Made by a program: the position numbers and the translations under genes. Under the pieces are notes generated by a model. It did no database searches. It was not told where the DNA came from and saw only the letters and a program-made list of their open reading frames with translations. Positions 12,001 to 53,166 of a stretch of DNA of 64,000 bases are shown here, in pieces. Source of the DNA: Patescibacteria group bacterium (GTDB lineage: Bacteria; Patescibacteriota; Patescibacteriia; UBA9934; GWF2-40-263); assembly GCA_041661745.1 (NCBI GenBank), contig JBAZTR010000002.1, positions 68,368 to 132,367 of the forward strand, written 5' to 3'. The stretch's first letter is position 1. Every line of letters starts with the position of its first letter.

Positions 12001-12045
12001 GGGGCGAAAGGGGTACAAGGGGTGGAAGGGGTAAAACGGGAATAA
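12001..12045. repeat. Periodic G-rich repeat (AAGGGGT x4, about 10-nt period); equals a CCCCTT-repeat leader on the ugd mRNA strand
   Basis: ggggcgaaaggggtacaaggggtggaaggggtaaaacggg. Reverse complement lies 25-65 nt upstream of the ugd ATG. Confidence 0.6.
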
Positions 12046-12068
12046 AAAAAGGCCTCCTAGTGGAGGCG
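12041..12068 (-). terminator. Intrinsic terminator after the GC-rich hypothetical gene
   Basis: Minus-strand reading: hairpin GCCTCC-tagt-GGAGGC followed by a T7 run. Confidence 0.55.
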
Positions 12069-12090
12069 AGACAGGGTGTGGAAGTTGGGG

Positions 12091-12588
12091 CTAGCCCGTG
12101 ATGCCGAGCCGCCGGGCATCGGCGATGGCTTGTGCCCGCCGCTCCTCCTCGCTCTGGGCGAGGCGTGCCGCCTGCTCCCGTTGCTGCTTCACCTCGACCC
12201 AGGCCGCGGCGACGGCATTCTCGTTCTCCTGGACGTAGAGAAGGGCTCTCTGCCACTCCTCGGACCTGTCGAACCCCTTGACCATGTACTTGTTGTCGCC
12301 AGACCGGTAGACGGAAAGACAGATCTTGTTACCGAGATGGATGGTGACTTCTTGTCCACCCATGCCGGTCATGCCGTCCTCGAAGAAGAACGAGAGCCCG
12401 CCGAAGTCGAGAAGCTCGCTCTTCGTGTGGTAACGGTACGTGTATTCCTCACTGGAAACGACTCGTCCGCGTCTCTCGATGAGGTCAGGAACGAAGGTGA
12501 AGATGCCGTCGAGGAAATTCTGCCGCTTAGCGACCATTTCCTCGATGGCAGCCGTGGGAAGATCGGAAGCAGAGCGGGATGCGGGCAT
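12091..12588 (-). CDS. Hypothetical protein with C-terminal coiled-coil; GC-rich cassette
   Basis: Protein-like composition on the minus strand; the overlapping plus-strand ORF is L/G/R-rich antisense noise. Bracketed by terminators at 12041-12068 and 12653-12682. Very GC-rich by eye. Confidence 0.4.
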   Translation of the reverse strand: MPASRSASDLPTAAIEEMVAKRQNFLDGIFTFVPDLIERRGRVVSSEEYTYRYHTKSELLDFGGLSFFFEDGMTGMGGQEVTIHLGNKICLSVYRSGDNKYMVKGFDRSEEWQRALLYVQENENAVAAAWVEVKQQREQAARLAQSEEERRAQAIADARRLGITG

Positions 12589-12652
12589 AGTGTCTCCCAG
12601 AGGCTAGGGGTGAAAGGCCGGCTCGACTTTACCCAAAAAATAAAATTAAGTC

Positions 12653-12696: not shown

Positions 12697-13962
12697 CTAA
12701 AAAAGACTGGAAGGAATTTTTTCCAAATCAGTGTCGGCAATGCCCAGGCTTAAGAATCTCATTATGTCGTAGGCGGCATCGCCATCCTCTAAATAAACCC
12801 GATAACATTTATCCGGGTGAACATACCAAGCTTCGCCGTGTTGTTGAACCTGCAACAAAATTTTTCCTTTTAATTGATTGGCCAAAGAATTTGTCGCACA
12901 AACACTGTTAGCGGTCAAGACTTCGCTTGAACTTTCAATTAAGGGAATCTTGGCCAAGTCAGCATCGGTAATACCCAAACTAAAGTAGCGCATCATAGTG
13001 TAAGCAGCCGCGCCGTCTTCCATGTAATAACGCATGTTGTCTTTAGGGTTAACATACCAAGCTTCACCATTTTGTTCGACTTGAAGCAAAATACGTCCTT
13101 TCATTCTTTCCACCAACGCAGCGTCATATTTGGAGGGATCGTACTCACCGGAAGTGGACACTGTCACCTGCGCTGTTTCGTCTCCGTCGCCGGGCAAGGT
13201 GAAATATTCCGGGTAGTATTCCTCGTCTGTGGCAAAATAATAACAAACTCCGGCTGAGCAAGCCTTATTTCCCCATTCATAAAGGGTCGAATAATCCCGA
13301 GTAAAAGTATCAGCCCCGAAGGCGTCTTCAAAAATTGCGTTAAGATTTTCTATCCAAGTATAAGAATTCAGTTCACCCGAAGCCACCGCAGTGGGGATAC
13401 CAAAATAATTTCCCAAAGCGTCAAAGGCACCACCGCCAGAATTTCCATGTTCAGCCTGGGCGTCAGATTTAATCCAATCGGTACCGTCGAAGCCGGAAAT
13501 AGTTCCGCTAGTGGAGGTAATTGTTGAACCGGCCAAACCGGCATCAGGGTAACCAAGCAGGGTTATATCCTCACCCAAAATCATGGAGTCGGCGTTTCCC
13601 CATTCAGCACTCGAAGGAAAAATATATGGCTCGCCATATTCATCGGTAGCCTCAAGAAAGGCATAATCAAAATAATTATCGTATCTAACAATAGTTGGCG
13701 TTAACCAAAAAGCCACTTCCGGAATTTCATAGGGACTTATCGCGTAGCCGCCATAACAAGTTTCCTCTGTTTCGCCATAAGAATTTTGGACAACGTGAGC
13801 ATTAGTTAAAATCACGTTATCAAAAATCACTACTCCGGACCCGGTGTATTCGGGACACTCGATGTAGACCACGTTCTGGACATTGTCGGTAATCGAACCA
13901 GTGGCCGAGGCCATGGCCGGAAAAAGGAGAAATGCCCCAAGCAGAAAAAATATTCTTTTCAT
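12697..13962 (-). CDS. Secreted trypsin-like (S1) serine protease with two C-terminal tandem repeats of about 57 aa
   Basis: Signal peptide MKRIFFLLGAFLLFPAMASA. TNAHV (His) and GNSGG (Ser) motifs. Repeated KG(R/K)ILLQV(E/Q)Q(N/H)GEAWYV...MR(Y/F)(F/L)SLGI.D.DL.KIP modules. Confidence 0.7.
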   Translation of the reverse strand: MKRIFFLLGAFLLFPAMASATGSITDNVQNVVYIECPEYTGSGVVIFDNVILTNAHVVQNSYGETEETCYGGYAISPYEIPEVAFWLTPTIVRYDNYFDYAFLEATDEYGEPYIFPSSAEWGNADSMILGEDITLLGYPDAGLAGSTITSTSGTISGFDGTDWIKSDAQAEHGNSGGGAFDALGNYFGIPTAVASGELNSYTWIENLNAIFEDAFGADTFTRDYSTLYEWGNKACSAGVCYYFATDEEYYPEYFTLPGDGDETAQVTVSTSGEYDPSKYDAALVERMKGRILLQVEQNGEAWYVNPKDNMRYYMEDGAAAYTMMRYFSLGITDADLAKIPLIESSSEVLTANSVCATNSLANQLKGKILLQVQQHGEAWYVHPDKCYRVYLEDGDAAYDIMRFLSLGIADTDLEKIPSSLF

Positions 13963-14016
13963 ATTTATTTGGATTAAAAACCGCACTTATTATATCACGA
14001 CACTTAATTAAATTAA

Positions 14017-14050: not shown

Positions 14051-16930
14051 TTACTTGATGACGATATTCATTAACTTGCCCGGGACAAAAATCGTTTTAA
14101 CGATTTCTTTTCCGTCTAAATATTTCTTTACGTTGTCTTCAGTTTCCGCCGCCGCTTTCACCTCAGCTTCGCCCGCTTCGGGCGAAACCACGATCGTCCC
14201 GCGAAGTTTTCCATTAACCTGGACGGCAATCGTCACCTCGTCCTCTTTCACAAGTTCGGGATCAAACTCCGGCCACGATCCTTCTTCGACAAAACCTTTA
14301 CCACCAAACGAAGAATAAATTTCGTTGGCCAAGTGCGGAGCAAAAGGACACAAGACACGAACGAATTTTAAAAGATTGTCTTTAGTGATTCCTTTCTCTT
14401 CGTAAACCACATTCACAAAAGTCATCATTTGCGCCACGGCTGTGTTGAAACGAAAACTGTCGATATCCTCGGAAACTTTTTTAATTGTTTGATGAAGGGC
14501 CCGGGTAACTTTCTTAGTTTCTTCTTTAATTATAATTTGTTCCAACCCGGAAACTCGTTCCAAAAAGCGTCTGGTCCCGACCAAACCATTGGTACTCCAC
14601 ACGGCCGGTTGATTAAACGGCCCCATAAACATTTCATAAACCCGCAGAGCATCGGCTCCGTAATCGTTTACCATGTCGTCGGGATTAATTACATTACCCC
14701 AGCGCTTCGACATTTTGCGACCATCTTCGGCCAGAATCAAACCAACGTTTTGTAAACGAGTAAAAGGTTCCTCAACGCTAACCGCGCCAATATCAAAAAG
14801 AAACTTGTGCCAAAACCGCGCATAGATAAGGTGACGGGTGGCATGCTCGGCTCCACCAACATACAAATCAACCGGCGACCAATATTTTTCTTTTTTAGCA
14901 TCAACCAAAGCTGTGTCATTTTTAGGATCCATGTACCGCAAATAATACCAACAACTGCCAGCCCATTGCGGCATGGTGTTGGTTTCACGTTTGGCCGGGC
15001 CGCCACAGTTAGGACAAGTTGTGTTAACCCACTCGTCAATGTTGGCCAGCGGCGATTCGCCAGTGCCTGTTGGTTCGTAGTGTTCAACTTGTGGAAGTTC
15101 AAGCGGTAGTTGATCTTCCGGAAGGGCGACGACTCCACACTTGGCACAATGCACAAGCGGAATTGGCTCGCCCCAATAACGCTGGCGAGAAAAAACCCAA
15201 TCACGAAGTTTATATTGCGTTTGGCATTGGCCCAAACCCTTTTCTTCCAACCAAGAAATCATGTCAGCTTTGGCTTTCCAGGTCGGCAGGCCATCCAAAA
15301 AGTCGGAATTAATGGCTACGCCTTCTTCAACAAAAACCGGTGCACCTTCCTTGTAGGCGTACCAAATCATCGGGCCATCGACAACGTTAACGGTTTTTTC
15401 TACTTCACTTTCATCAAACCAAACCGGCTCGTGATTTTTTAATTCTTCGGCCGGAATTTCATCATGATCATCGTTTACTAAATCCAAAACCGCCACACGA
15501 ATTTGCGCATATCGATTTTGACCTTTGTGCGCAGCAAAATATTCGGTGTGAACTTCGAAACCGACATCTTTAACAAATTTAAAATTTTTATAACCGGTTT
15601 CCTCGGTCGCTTCACGGATAGCCGCGGTAGATAAATCTTCGTCACCTTCAATACCACCGATAATAAAGGTGTGGAGGTGCGAACGGCTAGGTGTAATATT
15701 AGAAAACCAATTAAGCAGCAAAACTTTTCCGTCTTTCGGGTTACGAATAATGACATGAACGTTTTTGCGACGGCTTTCCGGAACCCCTTCGTGCGGCGGA
15801 TTGGCTGGATCAATGAAATGGGGAGCGACTACTTGTTTAATTGGCAAATTATATTTTGTGGCAAAGGCAAAATCGCGTTCATCGTGTGCTGGCACGGCCA
15901 TAATGGCGCCGGTGCCGTAGCCCATCAAAACATAATCAGCCACCCAAATCGGAATTTTTTCATTGTTGGCCGGATTGATGGCATAAGCGCCGGTGAAGAC
16001 GCCAGTTTTTTCTTTGGTATCATCGCCGCGTTCAATATCTGTTTTAGCTTTCGTGGCGGCAAGGTAATTTTCAACCTCAACTCGACATTCACTAGTGGTA
16101 ATTTCCGAAACAAGCGAATGTTCAGGAGCCAAAACCATGTAAGTCGCGCCAAATAAAGTGTCGGGACGGGTGGTGAAAACTCTAACCTCACCCCTTCCCT
16201 CTCCTTCGTAAGGAGAGGGGGAAACGATTTTGAAAGTAACTTCCGCCCCCTCGCTCTTACCAATCCACTCCCGCTGCATTTGCTTAATCGAGTCCGGCCA
16301 TTCGGTCAGCTTATCGAGATCGGCAAGCAGACGATCGGCATAATCGGTAATTTTCAAAACCCACTGGCGCATTGGTTTTTGTTCAACCACACTGCCGCAG
16401 CGTTCACATTTACCATCGTCCAAATCTTCATTGGCCAAACCGGTTTGGCAACTCGGGCACCAATTGATTGGTTCGAAAGATTCATAAGCCAAACCTTTTT
16501 TAAACATCTGAAGAAACGCCCATTGTGTCCATTTATAATATTTTGGATCAGTTGTGTTTACTTCCCTGTCCCAATCATAAGTAAAACCAAGAATGGAAAG
16601 CTGTTTTTTAAAAACTTCAATATTCTGCTTAGTAGCCACGGCCGGATGGACTTTATTTTTAATGGCAAAATTTTCCGCCGGCAAGCCAAAAGCATCCCAA
16701 CCCATGGGGTGAAGAACAGAAAAACCCTGCATCATTTTAGTGCGAGCTACAACATCGGTGGCAATGTAGCCTTTAGGGTGACCAACGTGAAGCCCGGCGC
16801 CGGAAGGATATGGAAACATGTCGAGGGCATAAAACTTTTTCTTGCCAGAATCTTCATTAGTTTTAAAAATGCCGGACTTGGCCCATTTTTCCTGCCACTT
16901 TTTCTCAATTTGTTTGTGATCGTAAGGCAT
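14051..16930 (-). CDS. leuS: Leucyl-tRNA synthetase carrying an inserted Nudix hydrolase domain (about residues 385-530) and an in-frame palindromic element (residues 237-251)
   Basis: HVGH motif (GAGLHVGHPKGY), KMSKR motif (GRKMSKRWGN) and CP1 editing region (TTRPDT). A Nudix box GGIEGDEDLSTAAIREATEETGY sits between AVPAHDERDFAFATKY and the leucyl-specific region YKLRDWVFSRQRYWGEPIP. Confidence 0.9.
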   Translation of the reverse strand: MPYDHKQIEKKWQEKWAKSGIFKTNEDSGKKKFYALDMFPYPSGAGLHVGHPKGYIATDVVARTKMMQGFSVLHPMGWDAFGLPAENFAIKNKVHPAVATKQNIEVFKKQLSILGFTYDWDREVNTTDPKYYKWTQWAFLQMFKKGLAYESFEPINWCPSCQTGLANEDLDDGKCERCGSVVEQKPMRQWVLKITDYADRLLADLDKLTEWPDSIKQMQREWIGKSEGAEVTFKIVSPSPYEGEGRGEVRVFTTRPDTLFGATYMVLAPEHSLVSEITTSECRVEVENYLAATKAKTDIERGDDTKEKTGVFTGAYAINPANNEKIPIWVADYVLMGYGTGAIMAVPAHDERDFAFATKYNLPIKQVVAPHFIDPANPPHEGVPESRRKNVHVIIRNPKDGKVLLLNWFSNITPSRSHLHTFIIGGIEGDEDLSTAAIREATEETGYKNFKFVKDVGFEVHTEYFAAHKGQNRYAQIRVAVLDLVNDDHDEIPAEELKNHEPVWFDESEVEKTVNVVDGPMIWYAYKEGAPVFVEEGVAINSDFLDGLPTWKAKADMISWLEEKGLGQCQTQYKLRDWVFSRQRYWGEPIPLVHCAKCGVVALPEDQLPLELPQVEHYEPTGTGESPLANIDEWVNTTCPNCGGPAKRETNTMPQWAGSCWYYLRYMDPKNDTALVDAKKEKYWSPVDLYVGGAEHATRHLIYARFWHKFLFDIGAVSVEEPFTRLQNVGLILAEDGRKMSKRWGNVINPDDMVNDYGADALRVYEMFMGPFNQPAVWSTNGLVGTRRFLERVSGLEQIIIKEETKKVTRALHQTIKKVSEDIDSFRFNTAVAQMMTFVNVVYEEKGITKDNLLKFVRVLCPFAPHLANEIYSSFGGKGFVEEGSWPEFDPELVKEDEVTIAVQVNGKLRGTIVVSPEAGEAEVKAAAETEDNVKKYLDGKEIVKTIFVPGKLMNIVIK
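15340..15780 (-). other. Nudix hydrolase domain inserted within the leuS coding sequence (approximate bounds)
   Basis: Nudix signature GX5EX7REUXEEXGU is satisfied by GGIEGDEDLSTAAIREATEETGY. About 150 aa are extra relative to E. coli LeuS at this position. Confidence 0.6.
16183..16221. repeat. GC-rich palindromic element copy B, in-frame inside leuS (encodes ...SPSPYEGEGRGEVRV...)
   Basis: TAACCTCACCCCttCCCTCTCCTTcgtAAGGAGAGGGGg. Base composition contrasts sharply with the surrounding leuS sequence. Confidence 0.8.
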
Positions 16931-18405: not shown

Positions 18406-18562
18406 AGTGCAAAAAATTATTTTTTTCCTAGGACGAATATAGATTAATACTTTGGTAAGTGGAGGGCAACAAAAAAAGTGTATAACCATTGACAACAAGG
18501 AAATTTTATGTTAAAAATAACCGCCTCTTTGAGTCCACCCCGCAAATTCTCCCGGAGGAGAA

Positions 18563-18811
18563 ATGCTAGGAAAGTTCCTTGGCAACGAATTCGCCACGCC
18601 GGTCACGGCAGTCACTCTCATGGTTGCGGCCATGCTCATCTACGCCGGAATGGCCTGCCGACTGCACGTTGGCACGCCGGCCTTCATCTGGTTGGCCCTG
18701 GTGTTGGCCTTCCTGGTGGAGGCCAACCTCGAGTGCCTCCCGGCCCGGTGGATGACGAAGGGTTTTGCCGTGGCCCTCGCCGGCGCCGCGGCCGTCTGCG
18801 TCATCTTCTGA
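18563..18811 (+). CDS. Small GC-rich membrane protein with 2 predicted TM helices; hypothetical
   Basis: GGAGGAG Shine-Dalgarno 6 nt upstream of the ATG. Two hydrophobic helices. Overlapping longer ORFs on both strands are R/G/P-rich noise. Immediately followed by palindromic element copy F plus a T-run. Confidence 0.35.
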   Translation: MLGKFLGNEFATPVTAVTLMVAAMLIYAGMACRLHVGTPAFIWLALVLAFLVEANLECLPARWMTKGFAVALAGAAAVCVIF

Positions 18812-18813
18812 GT

Positions 18814-18860
18814 CTTCCTCCCCAACCCGCCCCTCCTCAACTCTCGAGGAGCGGTTTTTT
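18814..18860 (+). repeat. GC-rich palindromic element copy F, acting as terminator stem after the small membrane ORF
   Basis: CTTCCTCCCCAACCCGCCCCTCCTCaactctcGAGGAGCGG + TTTTTTT. Aligns with copy C sense sequence CCTCACCCCCCAACCCCTCTCCTTacgAAGGAGAGGGG. Confidence 0.6.
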
Positions 18861-18870
18861 TAATCAAAAA

Positions 18871-18892
18871 AACAACGGTCGAAACCGTCGTT
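18871..18892 (-). terminator. trxB terminator hairpin
   Basis: Minus-strand reading AACGACGGtttcgaCCGTTGTT followed by a T-run. Confidence 0.5.
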
Positions 18893-18894
18893 TT

Positions 18895-18950
18895 CACCTC
18901 TCCCCTTCTCCCCTCTCCTTCGTAAGGAGAGGGGTTGGGGGGTGAGGTTA
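18895..18950 (-). repeat. GC-rich palindromic element copy C at the 3' end of trxB; its TAA terminus is the trxB stop codon
   Basis: Minus-strand reading TAACCTCACCCCccaaCCCCTCTCCTTacgAAGGAGAGGGGagaaggggagaggtga. Copies C and F are tail-to-tail around two convergent terminators. Confidence 0.75.
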
Positions 18951-19871
18951 TTTTTGTAACCAACGTTCAGCATCCATGGCTGCCATACAACCAGTACCAG
19001 CCGAAGTGATAGCCTGACGATAACGAGTATCGGCAACATCACCGCCGGCGAAAACACCAGGGACACTGGTTTCACTCCCACGCCCCTTACATATAATGTA
19101 ACCACGCTCATCCATTTCCACTTGTCCCTTAAACATTTCTGTATTCGGTTTGTGGCCAATGGCCGGAAAAATGCCATCGACCTTAATTTCTGTTTCCTCG
19201 TTGGTTTTAGAATTCAGAACTTTTGCGCCGGTTACCTTTGTCCCATCACCAAGAACTTCTTTAACCGAAACATTCCAAACAAAATTAATTTTTGCTTCGG
19301 CCTGGGCTTTCTCTTGCATGATTTTTGAGGCTTTTAGACTTTCACCGCGTACCAGAACTGTTACCTTATTGGCAAACTTAGCGAGGTCAAGAGCCTCCTC
19401 CATAGCGGCATCACCACCACCAACAACCGCGACTTCTTTACCTTTAAAGAAAAAGCCATCGCAAGTGGCGCAAACCGAAACCCCCTTACCTTTATACTGT
19501 TCCTCGCCCGGCACATTCATCCAAATGGCCGAGGCTCCGGTGGCAATAACCAAACTCTCGGTTTGGTATTCCGCCCCGCTGGTCGAAACAATCTTAAAAG
19601 GCTGCGCCGACAAATCAACCGAAGCAATATTTTCGGCGATAATTTTTGTTCCAAACTTTTCCGCCTGTTTTCGCATGCGCTCTTCCATTAACTCCGAACC
19701 ATAAACACCTTCAGGAAAGCCGGGAAAATTTTCGACGACTGTTGTCCACATTAATTGCCCGCCTGGTTGCGGCCCGGAAAACAAAACCGGAGCAAGTTCA
19801 GCTCGCGCGGCGTAAATGGCCGCCGTGTAACCGGCCGGACCAGCGCCGATGATGATTATTTTTTCTGACAT
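18948..19871 (-). CDS. trxB: Thioredoxin-disulfide reductase
   Basis: GAGPAGYTAA FAD motif, CATC redox site, GGGDAAMEEA NADPH motif. Confidence 0.9.
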   Translation of the reverse strand: MSEKIIIIGAGPAGYTAAIYAARAELAPVLFSGPQPGGQLMWTTVVENFPGFPEGVYGSELMEERMRKQAEKFGTKIIAENIASVDLSAQPFKIVSTSGAEYQTESLVIATGASAIWMNVPGEEQYKGKGVSVCATCDGFFFKGKEVAVVGGGDAAMEEALDLAKFANKVTVLVRGESLKASKIMQEKAQAEAKINFVWNVSVKEVLGDGTKVTGAKVLNSKTNEETEIKVDGIFPAIGHKPNTEMFKGQVEMDERGYIICKGRGSETSVPGVFAGGDVADTRYRQAITSAGTGCMAAMDAERWLQK

Positions 19872-44631: not shown

Positions 44632-44716
44632 AAAAATATTAATTATTTCTTTAAAATAATAGCATAACGGCGTGGAACAGCAACCCTTGACCAAAGGGCA
44701 AAAAAAGCGTTAAATA

Positions 44717-45253
44717 ATGGCGGGGACACAGACCGGAGGAAGAACCATGGTACACCATGCCGTGGCTCTGCCTGTTAGCGAGGATGGCCGTGAGGTCCTC
44801 CTCGCGTGTCACACTGAGGGAACCAATTATGGGGCCCTCCTTCCTCCCAGTGGTAAGGTGAAGCCAACGGATCGAAACGCCCAAGCTGCTGCGGTCAGGG
44901 AAACCCGCGAAGAGCTGGGTATCGATCTCGACGATCCACGATGCGTAGGTGTCGTGGAGGTCCTCAAGGAAGACGGCGACTGGCTGAGACTGTTCGTCTT
45001 TGTCTCGCGCTACCGTGGGAAGCCCCGGAAAAGCAACGAGATGAGAGACGCGCGTCTCTTCCCGATCGACGACCTGCCTCTCGAGGACATGTGGCCCGAT
45101 GCTAGTAGCTGGGTGCCTCACGTGATCAACCATGGTCACGACGCCCCGCCACTCGGGTTCAGGCTTCGCCACGTGCGTGGACCAAATGGCCGTCCCGGGT
45201 TCCTTGTCAAAAGGTTCAACCCGGCCGCGTTGGTCAGGAGGTACTGCGCATGA
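44717..45253 (+). CDS. Nudix hydrolase; GC-rich island gene
   Basis: Nudix box GKVKPTDRNAQAAAVRETREELGI. Markedly GC-rich by eye. The overlapping antisense ORF 44651-45319 is judged spurious. Confidence 0.55.
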   Translation: MAGTQTGGRTMVHHAVALPVSEDGREVLLACHTEGTNYGALLPPSGKVKPTDRNAQAAAVRETREELGIDLDDPRCVGVVEVLKEDGDWLRLFVFVSRYRGKPRKSNEMRDARLFPIDDLPLEDMWPDASSWVPHVINHGHDAPPLGFRLRHVRGPNGRPGFLVKRFNPAALVRRYCA

Positions 45254-45413
45254 CCACCTCACCCAACAACCCCTCGGCCGCCAGGCCAAGGACTCACGTC
45301 GATCGTTCGAGCACCCCACTTGCTCATGGTCGGCGTTTTATTTCTCCACGAGAGTGTCTGGCTTATTCCTTGACTCCTTTTCAAAAATCATTTATCATAA
45401 CCGCGCAATTTAT

Positions 45414-45526: not shown

Positions 45527-45571
45527 AAAAACCGCCCGCCAAGCGAACCTTGGGGACGGGACGAACGAAGA

Positions 45572-46444
45572 CTACTCCTCCAAGAAACGTCGGTGTTGTT
45601 CGACCATCGCGAGCAACTCGGGGCCGGTGAAGACTGGGCGTTGAATTGTCTGCCAGTCGTTGGTCGAACGTGCAGGGTCCCACGGGCAAATCGAACGCAT
45701 CCAGTCAAGGCGAGTCCGCACATCAGTCGCACCTTCGGGATTGATCCGAGTATAGTGGAGGATATGGCCGTTGTGAATGCGGTCCAGGTTGCGTCGCGAC
45801 CTATCCAAATCGCGGAAGCGCTGCGGCGTCATGCGCTCAATAAGCACACGAACGGCCCACATAACCTCACCATGACAGACGATGATGACCGAGCCGTTGG
45901 ACTGCTCGCGGTGAAGTGAGTCAAAGAAAGCATGCAGACGATCAAGGACATCGGCCAGTGATTCACCGCCACCCGGCCGCCACCACACACCATCACGTTC
46001 CCTACGAGCCAAATTTTCGGCCATCTCGCCAGTGGCCCGCTGTTCAGCCGTGGCCGAACTAAGCCGACCCCAGTCGCGCTCGGACAGCATGGGGTGCAAA
46101 AGCCACTCAGCCCCCGGCATTTCTAGCAACCCGGCCGTTTCGATGGCCCGAGCGTACCAGCTAGTCAGGTAACGAGTGAAGCCTGCGGGAAACTCACGCC
46201 GCAGCCACTCACCGGCGGCCGCAGCTTGATTGCAGCCGCGCGGACTAAGACGCCATTCCTGGGTGTGAACCGCGTCGAGCTTGGCCATGAGTGAGCTATC
46301 GCCTTTTTTTACCAGAGCCTGGGCAACATTCCCCTCGCTCTCTCCGTGACGAACGAGGACAAGATTAAGCGGCATAGTCATGGACACATCCCCTTTCATT
46401 GAGCCTTGGAAATCGACCTTAACACCTAATTTTTTAAGCGTCAA
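45572..46444 (-). CDS. Histidine phosphatase family protein (phosphoglycerate mutase-like); GC-rich island gene
   Basis: LVLVRHGESEGN RHG catalytic motif. Start may be the internal Met MPLNLVLV at about 46375. GC-rich like the adjacent Nudix gene. Confidence 0.55.
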   Translation of the reverse strand: MTLKKLGVKVDFQGSMKGDVSMTMPLNLVLVRHGESEGNVAQALVKKGDSSLMAKLDAVHTQEWRLSPRGCNQAAAAGEWLRREFPAGFTRYLTSWYARAIETAGLLEMPGAEWLLHPMLSERDWGRLSSATAEQRATGEMAENLARRERDGVWWRPGGGESLADVLDRLHAFFDSLHREQSNGSVIIVCHGEVMWAVRVLIERMTPQRFRDLDRSRRNLDRIHNGHILHYTRINPEGATDVRTRLDWMRSICPWDPARSTNDWQTIQRPVFTGPELLAMVEQHRRFLEE

Positions 46445-51939: not shown

Positions 51940-51984
51940 TAAGCAAGGAATGAGTATAAAGGAATTTCGGAAAACGGTCAAGAT

Positions 51985-52010
51985 TAAAAAAGCCCGCACG
52001 GATGTGCGAG
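51985..52010 (-). terminator. Intrinsic terminator after the caspase-like gene
   Basis: Minus-strand reading: hairpin CGCACatccGTGCG followed by GGCTTTTTT. Confidence 0.5.
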
Positions 52011-52020
52011 CGAGGCGGCT

Positions 52021-53070
52021 TCAGAAGCGGAAGACGAGGATGCCAGTGCCGGTGGCCAGCAGAACACCGCCGACAGCCAAGGTGCTGATCTGCGAGGCGC
52101 GAACCGCCTCGTAGGCCTTCTGGTCGCGCGGCTCCAGGGGCTCCATGAGGTAGGCGTCGCCGATCCCGTAGAGGGAGGCGCTGGCGACCCCAAAGAACAG
52201 TCCGGAGCCGATGACCGCCCAGCCGGCGTTCGGGTGCCCCTTCTTCTTGCCGGGGACGACCGGGGCCGGCGGCAGTACCGCGACTGCCCGAACGGGCGGC
52301 ATCGCGATGACATCGGTCGGATCGTAGTTGCCGGTCACGTCGACGTGTGCCTTGTCTTCGGTGGCCTCGCCGACCCTCTTGTCGACGAAACGCTGGAACT
52401 CGGCCACGGTGATTTCGCCGTTGCCGGAGGCGTCGGCCAGACCGTCCAGGCCTTCGGCTACCACTTGACCGAAACCTGCCCACTCCGAACCAGTGTTGGC
52501 CGGAAGGTAGGACACGGCCAGGATGTTCGGAGCCTGGTCGGACCAGTGGCGCGACTGCGGACCAACCAAGGCCACGTTGCCGAGCGAACCCTGACGCATG
52601 GTCTGGGTCACGACGATGACCTGAACCCCGGGCTTGATGGACCCCATGAGCCCATCGACCCTGACGCCGCTGGCCATGACATCACTTGGGTTGACGTCCC
52701 AGGGCAACAGGTAGGGGTCATCGAAGTCGCCCCCGACGGCCAGCATGGAGATGTAGAGGAAGAGCGAGTCGCCGGCCTCCAGGTTGATGGCGAAGTCGTT
52801 CGAGAAGAGACTCTCGATGTCGACCTTGTTGGCCTTGCTGCTCACCACGAGGTTGACCTCGTAGCCGGAAGCCTTCAGGGCCAGACCCAGCTGGCGAGTC
52901 TGCTCCAGCCCAGCGTCGAGCGACCGCGGCAAGGTGGTGTCCTGGTAGTTGTCGACAGCCAGGACGACCGCGATCTTCTTCGGATCCCCATCCTCGGCCC
53001 CCGCCACTGCAGGGCAAAGGAGGGAGAACAGGAAAGCCATGGCAACGGCGAAGGCCAGACGATTGAACAT
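52021..53070 (-). CDS. Secreted/membrane-anchored caspase-like (peptidase C14-like) domain protein with EF-hand calcium-binding loop and C-terminal TM helices; GC-rich island gene
   Basis: Signal peptide MFNRLAFAVAMAFLFSLLCPAVAGA. Caspase-like block KIAVVLAVDNYQD...ASGYEV...GDSLFLYIS...VQVIVVTQTMRQG. EF-hand DASGNGEITVAEF. Two C-terminal hydrophobic helices. Very GC-rich by eye. Confidence 0.4.
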   Translation of the reverse strand: MFNRLAFAVAMAFLFSLLCPAVAGAEDGDPKKIAVVLAVDNYQDTTLPRSLDAGLEQTRQLGLALKASGYEVNLVVSSKANKVDIESLFSNDFAINLEAGDSLFLYISMLAVGGDFDDPYLLPWDVNPSDVMASGVRVDGLMGSIKPGVQVIVVTQTMRQGSLGNVALVGPQSRHWSDQAPNILAVSYLPANTGSEWAGFGQVVAEGLDGLADASGNGEITVAEFQRFVDKRVGEATEDKAHVDVTGNYDPTDVIAMPPVRAVAVLPPAPVVPGKKKGHPNAGWAVIGSGLFFGVASASLYGIGDAYLMEPLEPRDQKAYEAVRASQISTLAVGGVLLATGTGILVFRF

Positions 53071-53166
53071 TTCTGAACTCCCACAGGTGGAAAATTGGGT
53101 GAAACCGACGCCTAATTCTTATCATAAAATCGAAAAAAGTCAAGGATGTGTTATAATATTTCCGAT

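Follow-up and report, generated by a model that had tools for sequence, protein, structure and literature searches.

What is a probable second enzyme doing inside a leucyl-tRNA synthetase (LeuRS)? The question is raised by leuS, which encodes a bacterial-type LeuRS of 959 residues (LeuS) at positions 14051–16930 on the minus strand of a 64,000-nucleotide stretch from a Patescibacteria group bacterium (contig JBAZTR010000002.1; 'the window' hereafter means this whole stretch). An earlier note, made by inspection, had recognized a complete Nudix hydrolase domain within the synthetase, and the hidden Markov model scan, the motif and the predicted fold all agree with it. The Pfam NUDIX profile (PF00293) matched residues 387–516 (15383–15772, minus strand, as for all of the leuS features below) with an E-value of 2.5e-11 and 44.1 bits, compared with a gathering score of 21.1. 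The Nudix box read from the sequence, GGIEGDEDLSTAAIREATEETGY (residues 425–447; 15590–15658), has the form G-x5-E-x7-R-E-U-x-E-E-x-G-U, with A and Y rather than I, L or V at the two U positions, and is the sole instance of the strict box within the 64-kb window. AlphaFold2 modelling of the insert alone gave an alpha/beta/alpha sandwich with a pLDDT (predicted local distance difference test) score of 94 and a pTM (predicted template modelling) score of 0.88. A Foldseek search of the PDB with this model returned 550 matches at E≤0.001, and all 50 of those listed were Nudix-family proteins, the best with template modelling (TM) scores of 0.64–0.79. Taken together, these results indicate that, as judged from its sequence, the insert is a complete Nudix domain with all of the metal-binding and catalytic residues, and the model predicts that it folds autonomously, a point that the earlier note had raised.

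The boundaries of the insert were placed at residues ~370–536 (15323–15823) by motif distances and alignment. In the alignment with Thermus thermophilus LeuRS (1H3N; E 7e-244), LeuS residues 3–369 paired with residues 4–363 and LeuS residues 533–735 with residues 377–580, so that ~163 LeuS residues stand in place of a 13-residue loop of the CP1 domain (T. thermophilus 364–376), just past the AHDxRD motif. The insert thus starts 17 residues past AHDERD, within the editing domain. The spacing between AVPAHD and YKLRDW is 228 residues in LeuS compared with 73–76 in its close relatives without an insert, which gives ~152 extra residues, close to the ~150 first estimated; across the 120 best LeuRS homologues it was 217–228 with an insert, 73–76 in the closest insert-less sequences and up to ~105 in a few. 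The extent originally proposed (15340–15780) was slightly narrower. All three strings quoted in the earlier note are present in the 959-residue open reading frame (ORF), with the insert lying between the two flanking blocks AVPAHDERDFAFATKY (residues 345–360) and YKLRDWVFSRQRYWGEPIP (residues 573–591). The second block (YKLRDW...RYWG) had, however, been taken for a leucyl-specific region; in fact it is the conserved segment through which the chain leaves CP1 and re-enters the catalytic core. The leucine-specific domain itself is missing from LeuS: ~56 residues of the T. thermophilus enzyme (581–636) have no counterpart, near LeuS residues ~735–739 (14702–14730).

An assembly chimera or a frameshift could in principle have joined a Nudix gene to leuS, an explanation to which we attach practically no weight. 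The reading frame is unbroken over all 959 codons, and the identical protein is on deposit as MFA6131881.1 ('MAG: Patescibacteria group bacterium'), is encoded on two contigs of up to 217,810 bases and is found in NCBI, JGI and ENA. More than 100 independent metagenomic LeuRS homologues share the architecture with the same junctions. In the AlphaFold2 model of full-length LeuS (pLDDT 87.8, pTM 0.78) the 10-residue blocks of the insert scored 76–94 (one at 76, the others at 86–94), and both junctions were confident continuous strands with no low-confidence linkers. A fusion artefact, which the earlier note had also discounted, is thus effectively refuted. We considered in addition whether the insert might be an intein or a transposon-like element. 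No Hint or endonuclease Pfam match was found in LeuS; the junctions VAP|HFID and VFVEE|GVA showed no Cys, Ser or Thr followed by HN and so offer no nucleophile; and there were no meaningful direct or inverted repeats and no mobile-element signatures at 15323 or 15823. Both candidates were ruled out on these grounds. The claim that the base composition is native held for overall GC content, at 0.43 in the insert, 0.46 in the rest of leuS and 0.459 in the window, but at third codon positions the GC content of the insert (0.367) was below that of any equal-sized stretch of the remaining gene (minimum 0.38).

Does the insert compromise the synthetase that carries it? LeuS matched the LeuRS model TIGR00396 at 1052 bits against a cut-off of 548, in two stretches separated by the insert (NCBIfam scan), and a Pfam scan recovered the class I core, the PF13603 editing domain and the anticodon-binding domain besides the NUDIX domain. 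The HIGH motif (HVGH; 16778–16789), the KMSKS motif (KMSKR; 14702–14716), the Thr-rich editing motif TTRPDT (16157–16174) and AHDERD (15872–15889) are all present, and none of the four varies in 66 aligned relatives, whether or not these have an insert; Thr253, Thr254, Arg255, Asp257, Thr258, His349, Asp350, Arg352 and Asp353 are invariant in the same set. The N-terminal part of CP1 comprises residues 220–371 (15818–16273; positions 1–143 of the 185 in PF13603). Its C-terminal part (residues 533–572; 15215–15334), which aligns with T. thermophilus LeuRS from residue 377, has been pushed downstream by the insert and runs into YKLRDW; in it, Gly537 is invariant and Ser542 nearly so among the aligned LeuRS. 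By these tests LeuS is a bacterial LeuRS whose synthetic and editing motifs remain intact despite the insert.

The position of the module, so close behind the AHDERD motif of the editing domain, is the one observation that favours a role in pre-transfer editing, in which it would hydrolyse mis-activated aminoacyl-adenylates, as the earlier note had suggested. We found no support for that suggestion and consider it very improbable. The CP1 motifs for post-transfer editing are all preserved and do not vary between LeuRS that have the insert and those that lack it, and the same module occurs also as a free-standing protein, at other LeuRS sites and in a prolyl-tRNA synthetase (ProRS), as described below. 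Moreover, aminoacyl-adenylates are mixed anhydrides on a nucleoside monophosphate, and typical Nudix substrates are nucleoside-diphosphate-X compounds, a class to which aminoacyl-AMP does not belong.

To judge whether the domain is likely to be active, we counted conserved residues in an alignment of 106 sequences that carry an insert here, including two whose insert is not a Nudix domain. Within the box, Gly425 was conserved in 102, Gly426 in 103, Glu431 in 97, Arg439 in 100, Glu440 in 105, Glu443 in 103, Glu444 in 104 and Gly446 in 101. The box residues are thus kept in 92–99% of the sequences, although the inserts average only ~35% identity, compared with 61–70% for the LeuRS cores. Downstream of the box lies a family-specific block, Y464-F465-A-A-H468-K469-G-Q-N472-R473 (15512–15541), in which position 464 is Phe or Tyr in 103 of the 106, and Lys469, Asn472 and Arg473 are kept in 101, 99 and 91 respectively; Arg388, Trp408, His468, Leu484, His500 and Trp504 are also retained across the family. 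Compared with the closest relative that has the same cassette type (L092), the ratio of nonsynonymous to synonymous substitutions (dN/dS) by the Nei–Gojobori method was 0.084 in the insert, against 0.10 in the LeuRS core and 0.12 in CP1, values that are rough because dS is ~1.2–1.4 and near saturation. Purifying selection on the insert therefore appears to be as strong as on the synthetase itself, which argues that the insert is most likely an active enzyme.

An alternative is that the Nudix fold serves as a non-catalytic module that binds nucleotide or RNA, or regulates the synthetase, by sensing diadenosine tetraphosphate (Ap4A) or NTP or by contacting tRNA. A minority sub-lineage in which Glu431 is replaced by Gln and Arg439 by Ala (GG.E.GQT...A.AEI.EE.G) lends this some credit, being found both inserted (L001, L007, P0021 and P0106) and free-standing, and Nudix proteins that bind Ap4A but have lost catalysis are known, CFIm25/NUDT21 among them (PMC7705103). 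The copy in the window has a full Nudix box, however, the catalytic residues are kept at the high frequencies given above, and even the Gln/Ala variant retains the three metal-binding Glu residues. We regard a non-catalytic role as improbable.

How widespread is this architecture? Among the 120 best LeuRS homologues, 105 had a Nudix domain at the same site, two had an unrelated insert there and 13 had a short loop. All of the 105 were from the candidate phyla radiation (CPR)/Patescibacteria, with source names including Uhrbacteria, Magasanikbacteria, Paceibacterota and Parcubacteria. As the query itself carries the insert, the list is skewed towards insert-bearers and gives no estimate of prevalence. 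A scan of GTDB species added insert-bearers from Saccharibacteria, Parcubacteria and Gracilibacteria; its back-translated patterns responded mainly to the generic HDERDFAF motif, and the insert-bearing loci, ~13 of the 80 kept (L001–L012 at this site and L018 at another CP1 site), are named examples rather than a prevalence figure. The architecture is unusual for bacteria in general, as the earlier note had it, but common within Patescibacteria. One of these loci, from Gracilibacteria (L011, 6001–6726), encodes a Nudix-bearing LeuRS whose reading frame is crossed by several TGA codons, as genetic code 25 would allow; genes of this kind would be fragmented by standard gene callers.

For clues to the substrate we compared the insert with characterized Nudix proteins. 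A PDB search with the single sequence gave weak matches (best E 0.014), and the family profile matched 2AZW (1.7e-10), AvrM14 (3e-9), lupin Ap4A hydrolase (8e-9) and Aquifex Ap4A hydrolase (2e-8), with other Nudix classes next at 1e-7 to 1e-6, that is, within one to two orders of E-value. Foldseek likewise placed at or near the top 2AZW, as the best match, the Aquifex Ap4A hydrolase (TM scores 0.64/0.79) and Escherichia coli RppH (0.67/0.70). 2AZW and AvrM14 align over almost the whole of the insert domain, including its K..(N/Q)R and W motifs; AvrM14 is a secreted flax-rust fungal effector, an mRNA-decapping Nudix enzyme, and neither protein is fused to a synthetase. The asymmetric Ap4A hydrolases (human NUDT2, lupin 1F3Y and Aquifex aq_158, 3I7U) and RppH/NudH have the Nudix fold and box in common with the insert but are free-standing, whereas the insert is embedded in a synthetase and has a signature of its own, comprising Trp408, HK..NR, Trp504 and an N-terminal F.D..NPP.EGK strand.

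In Nudix enzymes of the Ap4A-hydrolase/RppH-like subfamily a conserved Tyr ~17 residues past the box stacks the adenine. Tyr464 stands at +17, and this position, as noted above, is almost always Phe or Tyr. By hhalign, Tyr464 paired with Tyr87 of human NUDT2 and Lys469 with Lys92 (probability 89%), and Arg388 with Arg8 of RppH. The block from Tyr464 to Arg473 is thus a candidate element for base stacking and polyphosphate binding, and the conserved basic cluster of the insert family (Arg388, His468, Lys469, Arg473 and His500) would fit a polyphosphate substrate. A substrate of the nucleoside-5'-polyphosphate type, such as Ap4A or another dinucleoside tetraphosphate (Np4N), or 5'-triphosphate or cap-like RNA ends, is plausible, as a lead and not as an assignment.

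If the domain is an active enzyme, is it linked to synthetases in particular? A scan of 1.84 billion representative proteins with the profile of the insert gave 829 matches at E≤1e-10, of which 187 reached E≤1e-30. Host proteins were broken down for the best 150 of the 187, with approximate counts: ~100 were LeuRS, complete or as fragments; ~30 were free-standing proteins of 150–200 residues with a Met start and the same span as the insert; ~15 had other small architectures; and one was a class II ProRS (P0233) in which the module separates the anticodon-binding domain from the C-terminal one. Among these 150 there was no large host protein of an unrelated kind. The ProRS is 643 residues long, and its module, at residues 383–539, was confirmed by Pfam. 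The ~15 other architectures included recurrent stand-alone proteins of ~280 residues, in which a CP1-like domain is represented by its C-terminal half and the Nudix module occupies the homologous loop (PF13603 plus PF00293). These proteins (P0287, P0290, P0232, P0237 and P0252; loci L087–L089) are without the Thr-rich editing motif, come from AT-rich genomes and are not encoded beside leuS; the P0232 version has an additional N-terminal region.

Within LeuRS, the same Nudix family occupies at least three further positions in relatives, before the CP1 core and after residue ~600. The copies before the CP1 core are often a tandem pair, so that some LeuRS have three copies. Giant LeuRS of 1,150–1,560 residues occur in related CPR (P0015, P0033, P0039, P0029, P0057, P0036 and P0003), and combine up to three Nudix domains with Ham1 (ITPase family), HAD, Ser_hydrolase (alpha/beta) or DUF559 endonuclease domains, in frame at four loops. 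The free-standing members are often nearest to an inserted module (50–60% identity), closer than to other free-standing ones, and this interleaving points to several independent events of insertion or excision. The Nudix subfamily thus appears to occur mainly in CPR bacteria and to have entered LeuRS repeatedly. It is this near-exclusive and repeated association with LeuRS, ProRS and CP1 fragments that argues for a specific link to synthetases.

Gene neighbourhood adds weak evidence for a functional link, because it holds in only one lineage. In one CPR lineage a free-standing Nudix gene lies directly upstream of leuS (L081, 8001–8492 and 9071–11494, and the contig of P0137); the gap is 2 nt where the LeuRS carries an insert and ~580 nt where, in the other genome, an insert-less LeuRS of 807 residues follows. 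Weaker Nudix ORFs that follow leuS at loci of Saccharibacteria (E 1e-8 to 1e-12) were dropped as independent evidence because their similarity lies in the generic Nudix range and the loci share synteny.

These results suggest an answer to the opening question. The CP1 domain of LeuRS carries, in frame and in a permissive loop on its surface, a whole-gene-sized Nudix cassette of ~165 residues. Synthetases produce Ap4A and related Ap4N from the aminoacyl-adenylate, and the Nudix enzymes NUDT2 and RppH/NudH cleave such compounds asymmetrically (PMC7705103). The module would hydrolyse nucleoside-5'-polyphosphates (Ap4A/Np4N) or related 5'-polyphosphate or cap-like ends, its targets being the adenylylated side products that synthetases make from their own aminoacyl-adenylate. 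Tethering would put the hydrolase at the source of the by-product and keep its expression in step with that of the synthetase. The analysis shows the identity of the domain, its boundaries, its conservation, the selection on it, the dynamics of the cassette and the specific association of the family with LeuRS; that the domain is catalytically active, which class of substrate it acts on and that it is coupled to the chemistry of LeuRS, we infer. We give a little less than an even chance to the reading as a whole, in which a working Nudix pyrophosphohydrolase has a functional tie to the chemistry of the synthetase and clears adenylylated polyphosphate by-products at source.

The behaviour of the insert among close relatives bears directly on this reading. 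An order of genes for a TrxB-like reductase, glutamate dehydrogenase and leuS is common to three genomes, with UDP-glucose dehydrogenase further downstream in the window, L090 and L092; the L091 locus stops at leuS. The syntenic leuS genes are ~80% identical in nucleotide sequence yet unlike at the insert site. The window and L092 have the same Nudix type (84% identical), whereas the Nudix domain of L091 (P0005) is only 35% identical to that of the window, and nucleotide identity between these two genes drops from ~0.8 to ~0.45–0.6 exactly between residues ~365–375 and ~530–540. Over 5,356 pairs of sequences the identities of core and insert were essentially uncorrelated (Spearman 0.03). The LeuRS of L092 (P0002) has an extra in-frame insert of 131 residues (KEQIEKTATRINFRRQD...) after the equivalent of LeuS residue 598, for which there was no precomputed Pfam match; it occupies the loop that in other relatives holds alpha/beta-hydrolase or HAD domains.

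Several observations weigh against a functional tie to the synthetase. The syntenic LeuRS of L090 (P0008), also ~80% identical, has no insert, so LeuRS can do without it. P0017 and P0021 have cores that are ~95% identical and inserts that are 38% identical, with sharp boundaries. The same CP1 loop holds unrelated inserts in other phyla, namely DUF559 in Panacagrimonas and a further domain in Chloroflexi, and other LeuRS loops of relatives hold the Ham1, HAD and alpha/beta-hydrolase domains mentioned above. Four of the five free-standing lineages checked were not near leuS. The resemblance to characterized enzymes is remote, at only 17–24% identity to the Ap4A hydrolases, RppH and AvrM14, and the single best match, 2AZW (an Enterococcus faecalis MutT/Nudix protein from structural genomics), has no function that we know of. 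In addition, E. coli LeuRS is a weak Ap4A producer. The CP1 loop is a general insertion hotspot, and varied inserts together with cassette exchange fit a permissive landing pad better than a specific partnership. In Panacagrimonas sp. (Gammaproteobacteria; L020, 6001–6777) the DUF559 insert is a Vsr-like endonuclease, and the domain seen in Chloroflexi (L060 and L070) is one of ~125 residues containing 'GPWY.H..G' that is found in CPR as well (L040, P0075 and P0086).

The insert thus behaves like a cassette that is swapped, lost and duplicated between close relatives and not a static ancient insertion. The earlier note had called the insertion old; what stands of this is that the association of family and site is widespread. 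Recombination via the conserved leuS flanks would be the simplest mechanism for the swap. Such behaviour is what would be expected if the domain were a passenger, that is, an active house-cleaning or nucleotide-salvage Nudix enzyme whose chemistry is unrelated to LeuRS, embedded in an essential, constitutive gene of a streamlined genome and spread or swapped by recombination between those flanks. The variation in presence, absence and type of the insert among syntenic relatives, the pair P0017 and P0021, the unrelated domains in the same loop in other phyla, the lack of linkage to leuS of most free-standing copies, and the Ham1, HAD and Ser_hydrolase domains, which suggest an accretion of house-cleaning enzymes, all speak for a passenger. 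However, the family is almost confined to LeuRS, one ProRS and CP1-fragment proteins instead of being scattered over assorted large proteins, it has entered LeuRS independently at several sites, and its junctions show no flanking repeats or mobile-element signatures. We take the passenger explanation as a real possibility, though we lean away from it, and retain clearance of synthetase by-products as our working interpretation.

There is also a broader proposition. CPR LeuRS, and occasionally ProRS, may be a specific and recurrent host of a lineage-specific Nudix family, which has entered at least four loops independently, occurs in tandem with up to three copies, passes as a cassette between near-identical synthetases and is found together with modules of the Ham1, HAD and alpha/beta-hydrolase kinds. 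If so, there would be either a built-in clearance of Np4N or 5'-polyphosphates or a new in-frame mobility at the level of domains. In this comprehensive form we hold the proposition to be rather unlikely.

Some features of the neighbourhood of leuS may be recorded here. Downstream of it, at 12697–13986 on the minus strand, lies a gene for a secreted-looking Trypsin_2 peptidase of 429 residues with two tandem repeats of ~60 residues (…ILLQV.Q.GEAWYV.P…) at its C-terminus; the gene is present in L092 and not in the syntenic L090. The window, from a genome of 46% GC, also contains islands of 57–65% GC at 12001–12600, 18508–18951, 44651–45351, 45551–46401 and 51951–53101. Each holds one ORF without a Pfam match, for example 12091–12588 (minus strand), 18508–18945 (plus strand) and 52021–53070 (minus strand), and no relation of the islands to each other was detected by blastn or tblastx. 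Two of them sit where L090 has neighbouring genes with nothing between, and on this ground the islands look like small inserted variable genes.

How does this LeuRS compare with known systems? The host is a canonical bacterial LeuRS with the HIGH, KMSKS and Thr-rich motifs and the conserved Asp, and the site is a loop on the surface of CP1, and at such places insertions are known to be tolerated by class I synthetases. The known additions to CP1 are structural or tRNA-binding elements, and we know of none that is a second enzyme with its own active site; in CPR LeuRS, by comparison, there are up to three Nudix copies and, in relatives, other hydrolases as well. That a class I synthetase of prokaryotes can acquire a further catalytic domain has a precedent in NF040702 ('isoleucine--tRNA ligase, N-acetyltransferase domain-containing'), a family that came up in the NCBIfam scan and differs in that the added domain is GNAT and not Nudix and the host is isoleucyl-tRNA synthetase and not LeuRS. 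The one LeuRS model that LeuS matched in that scan was the generic TIGR00396, and NCBIfam has no model for a LeuRS that contains a Nudix domain. Full-text literature searches on Nudix with LeuRS, with synthetases and with CPR likewise turned up no account of such a domain in LeuRS or in any synthetase from CPR. Both component families are already known, and their combination seems to be undescribed and visible only in automatic Pfam annotations.

Nudix-bearing LeuRS are named plain 'leucine--tRNA ligase' in databases, a name that gives no hint of the probable second enzyme. Ap4A and other dinucleoside polyphosphates classically come from synthetases, Nudix enzymes are one class that removes Ap4A, and the minimal genomes of CPR depend on nucleotide salvage. 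A natural fusion of synthetase and Nudix domain would offer a direct handle on the need to clear Ap4A-type products at source, especially in CPR, and the natural controls exist in the form of ~80% identical orthologues with a different Nudix domain or none. A whole enzyme domain that is gained, lost, exchanged and multiplied within an essential gene makes a clear example of modular evolution at the domain level, and the dynamics of the cassette may explain the origin of the giant multi-hydrolase LeuRS, up to ~1,560 residues, of some CPR lineages. If CPR LeuRS is indeed a specific and recurrent host, this would point to an unrecognized coupling of aminoacyl-adenylate chemistry to the hydrolysis of Np4N or 5'-polyphosphates, that is, to self-clearance of alarmone or cap-donor by-products by the synthetase, or alternatively to a new mode of gene mobility that moves domains in frame and is directed at an essential gene.

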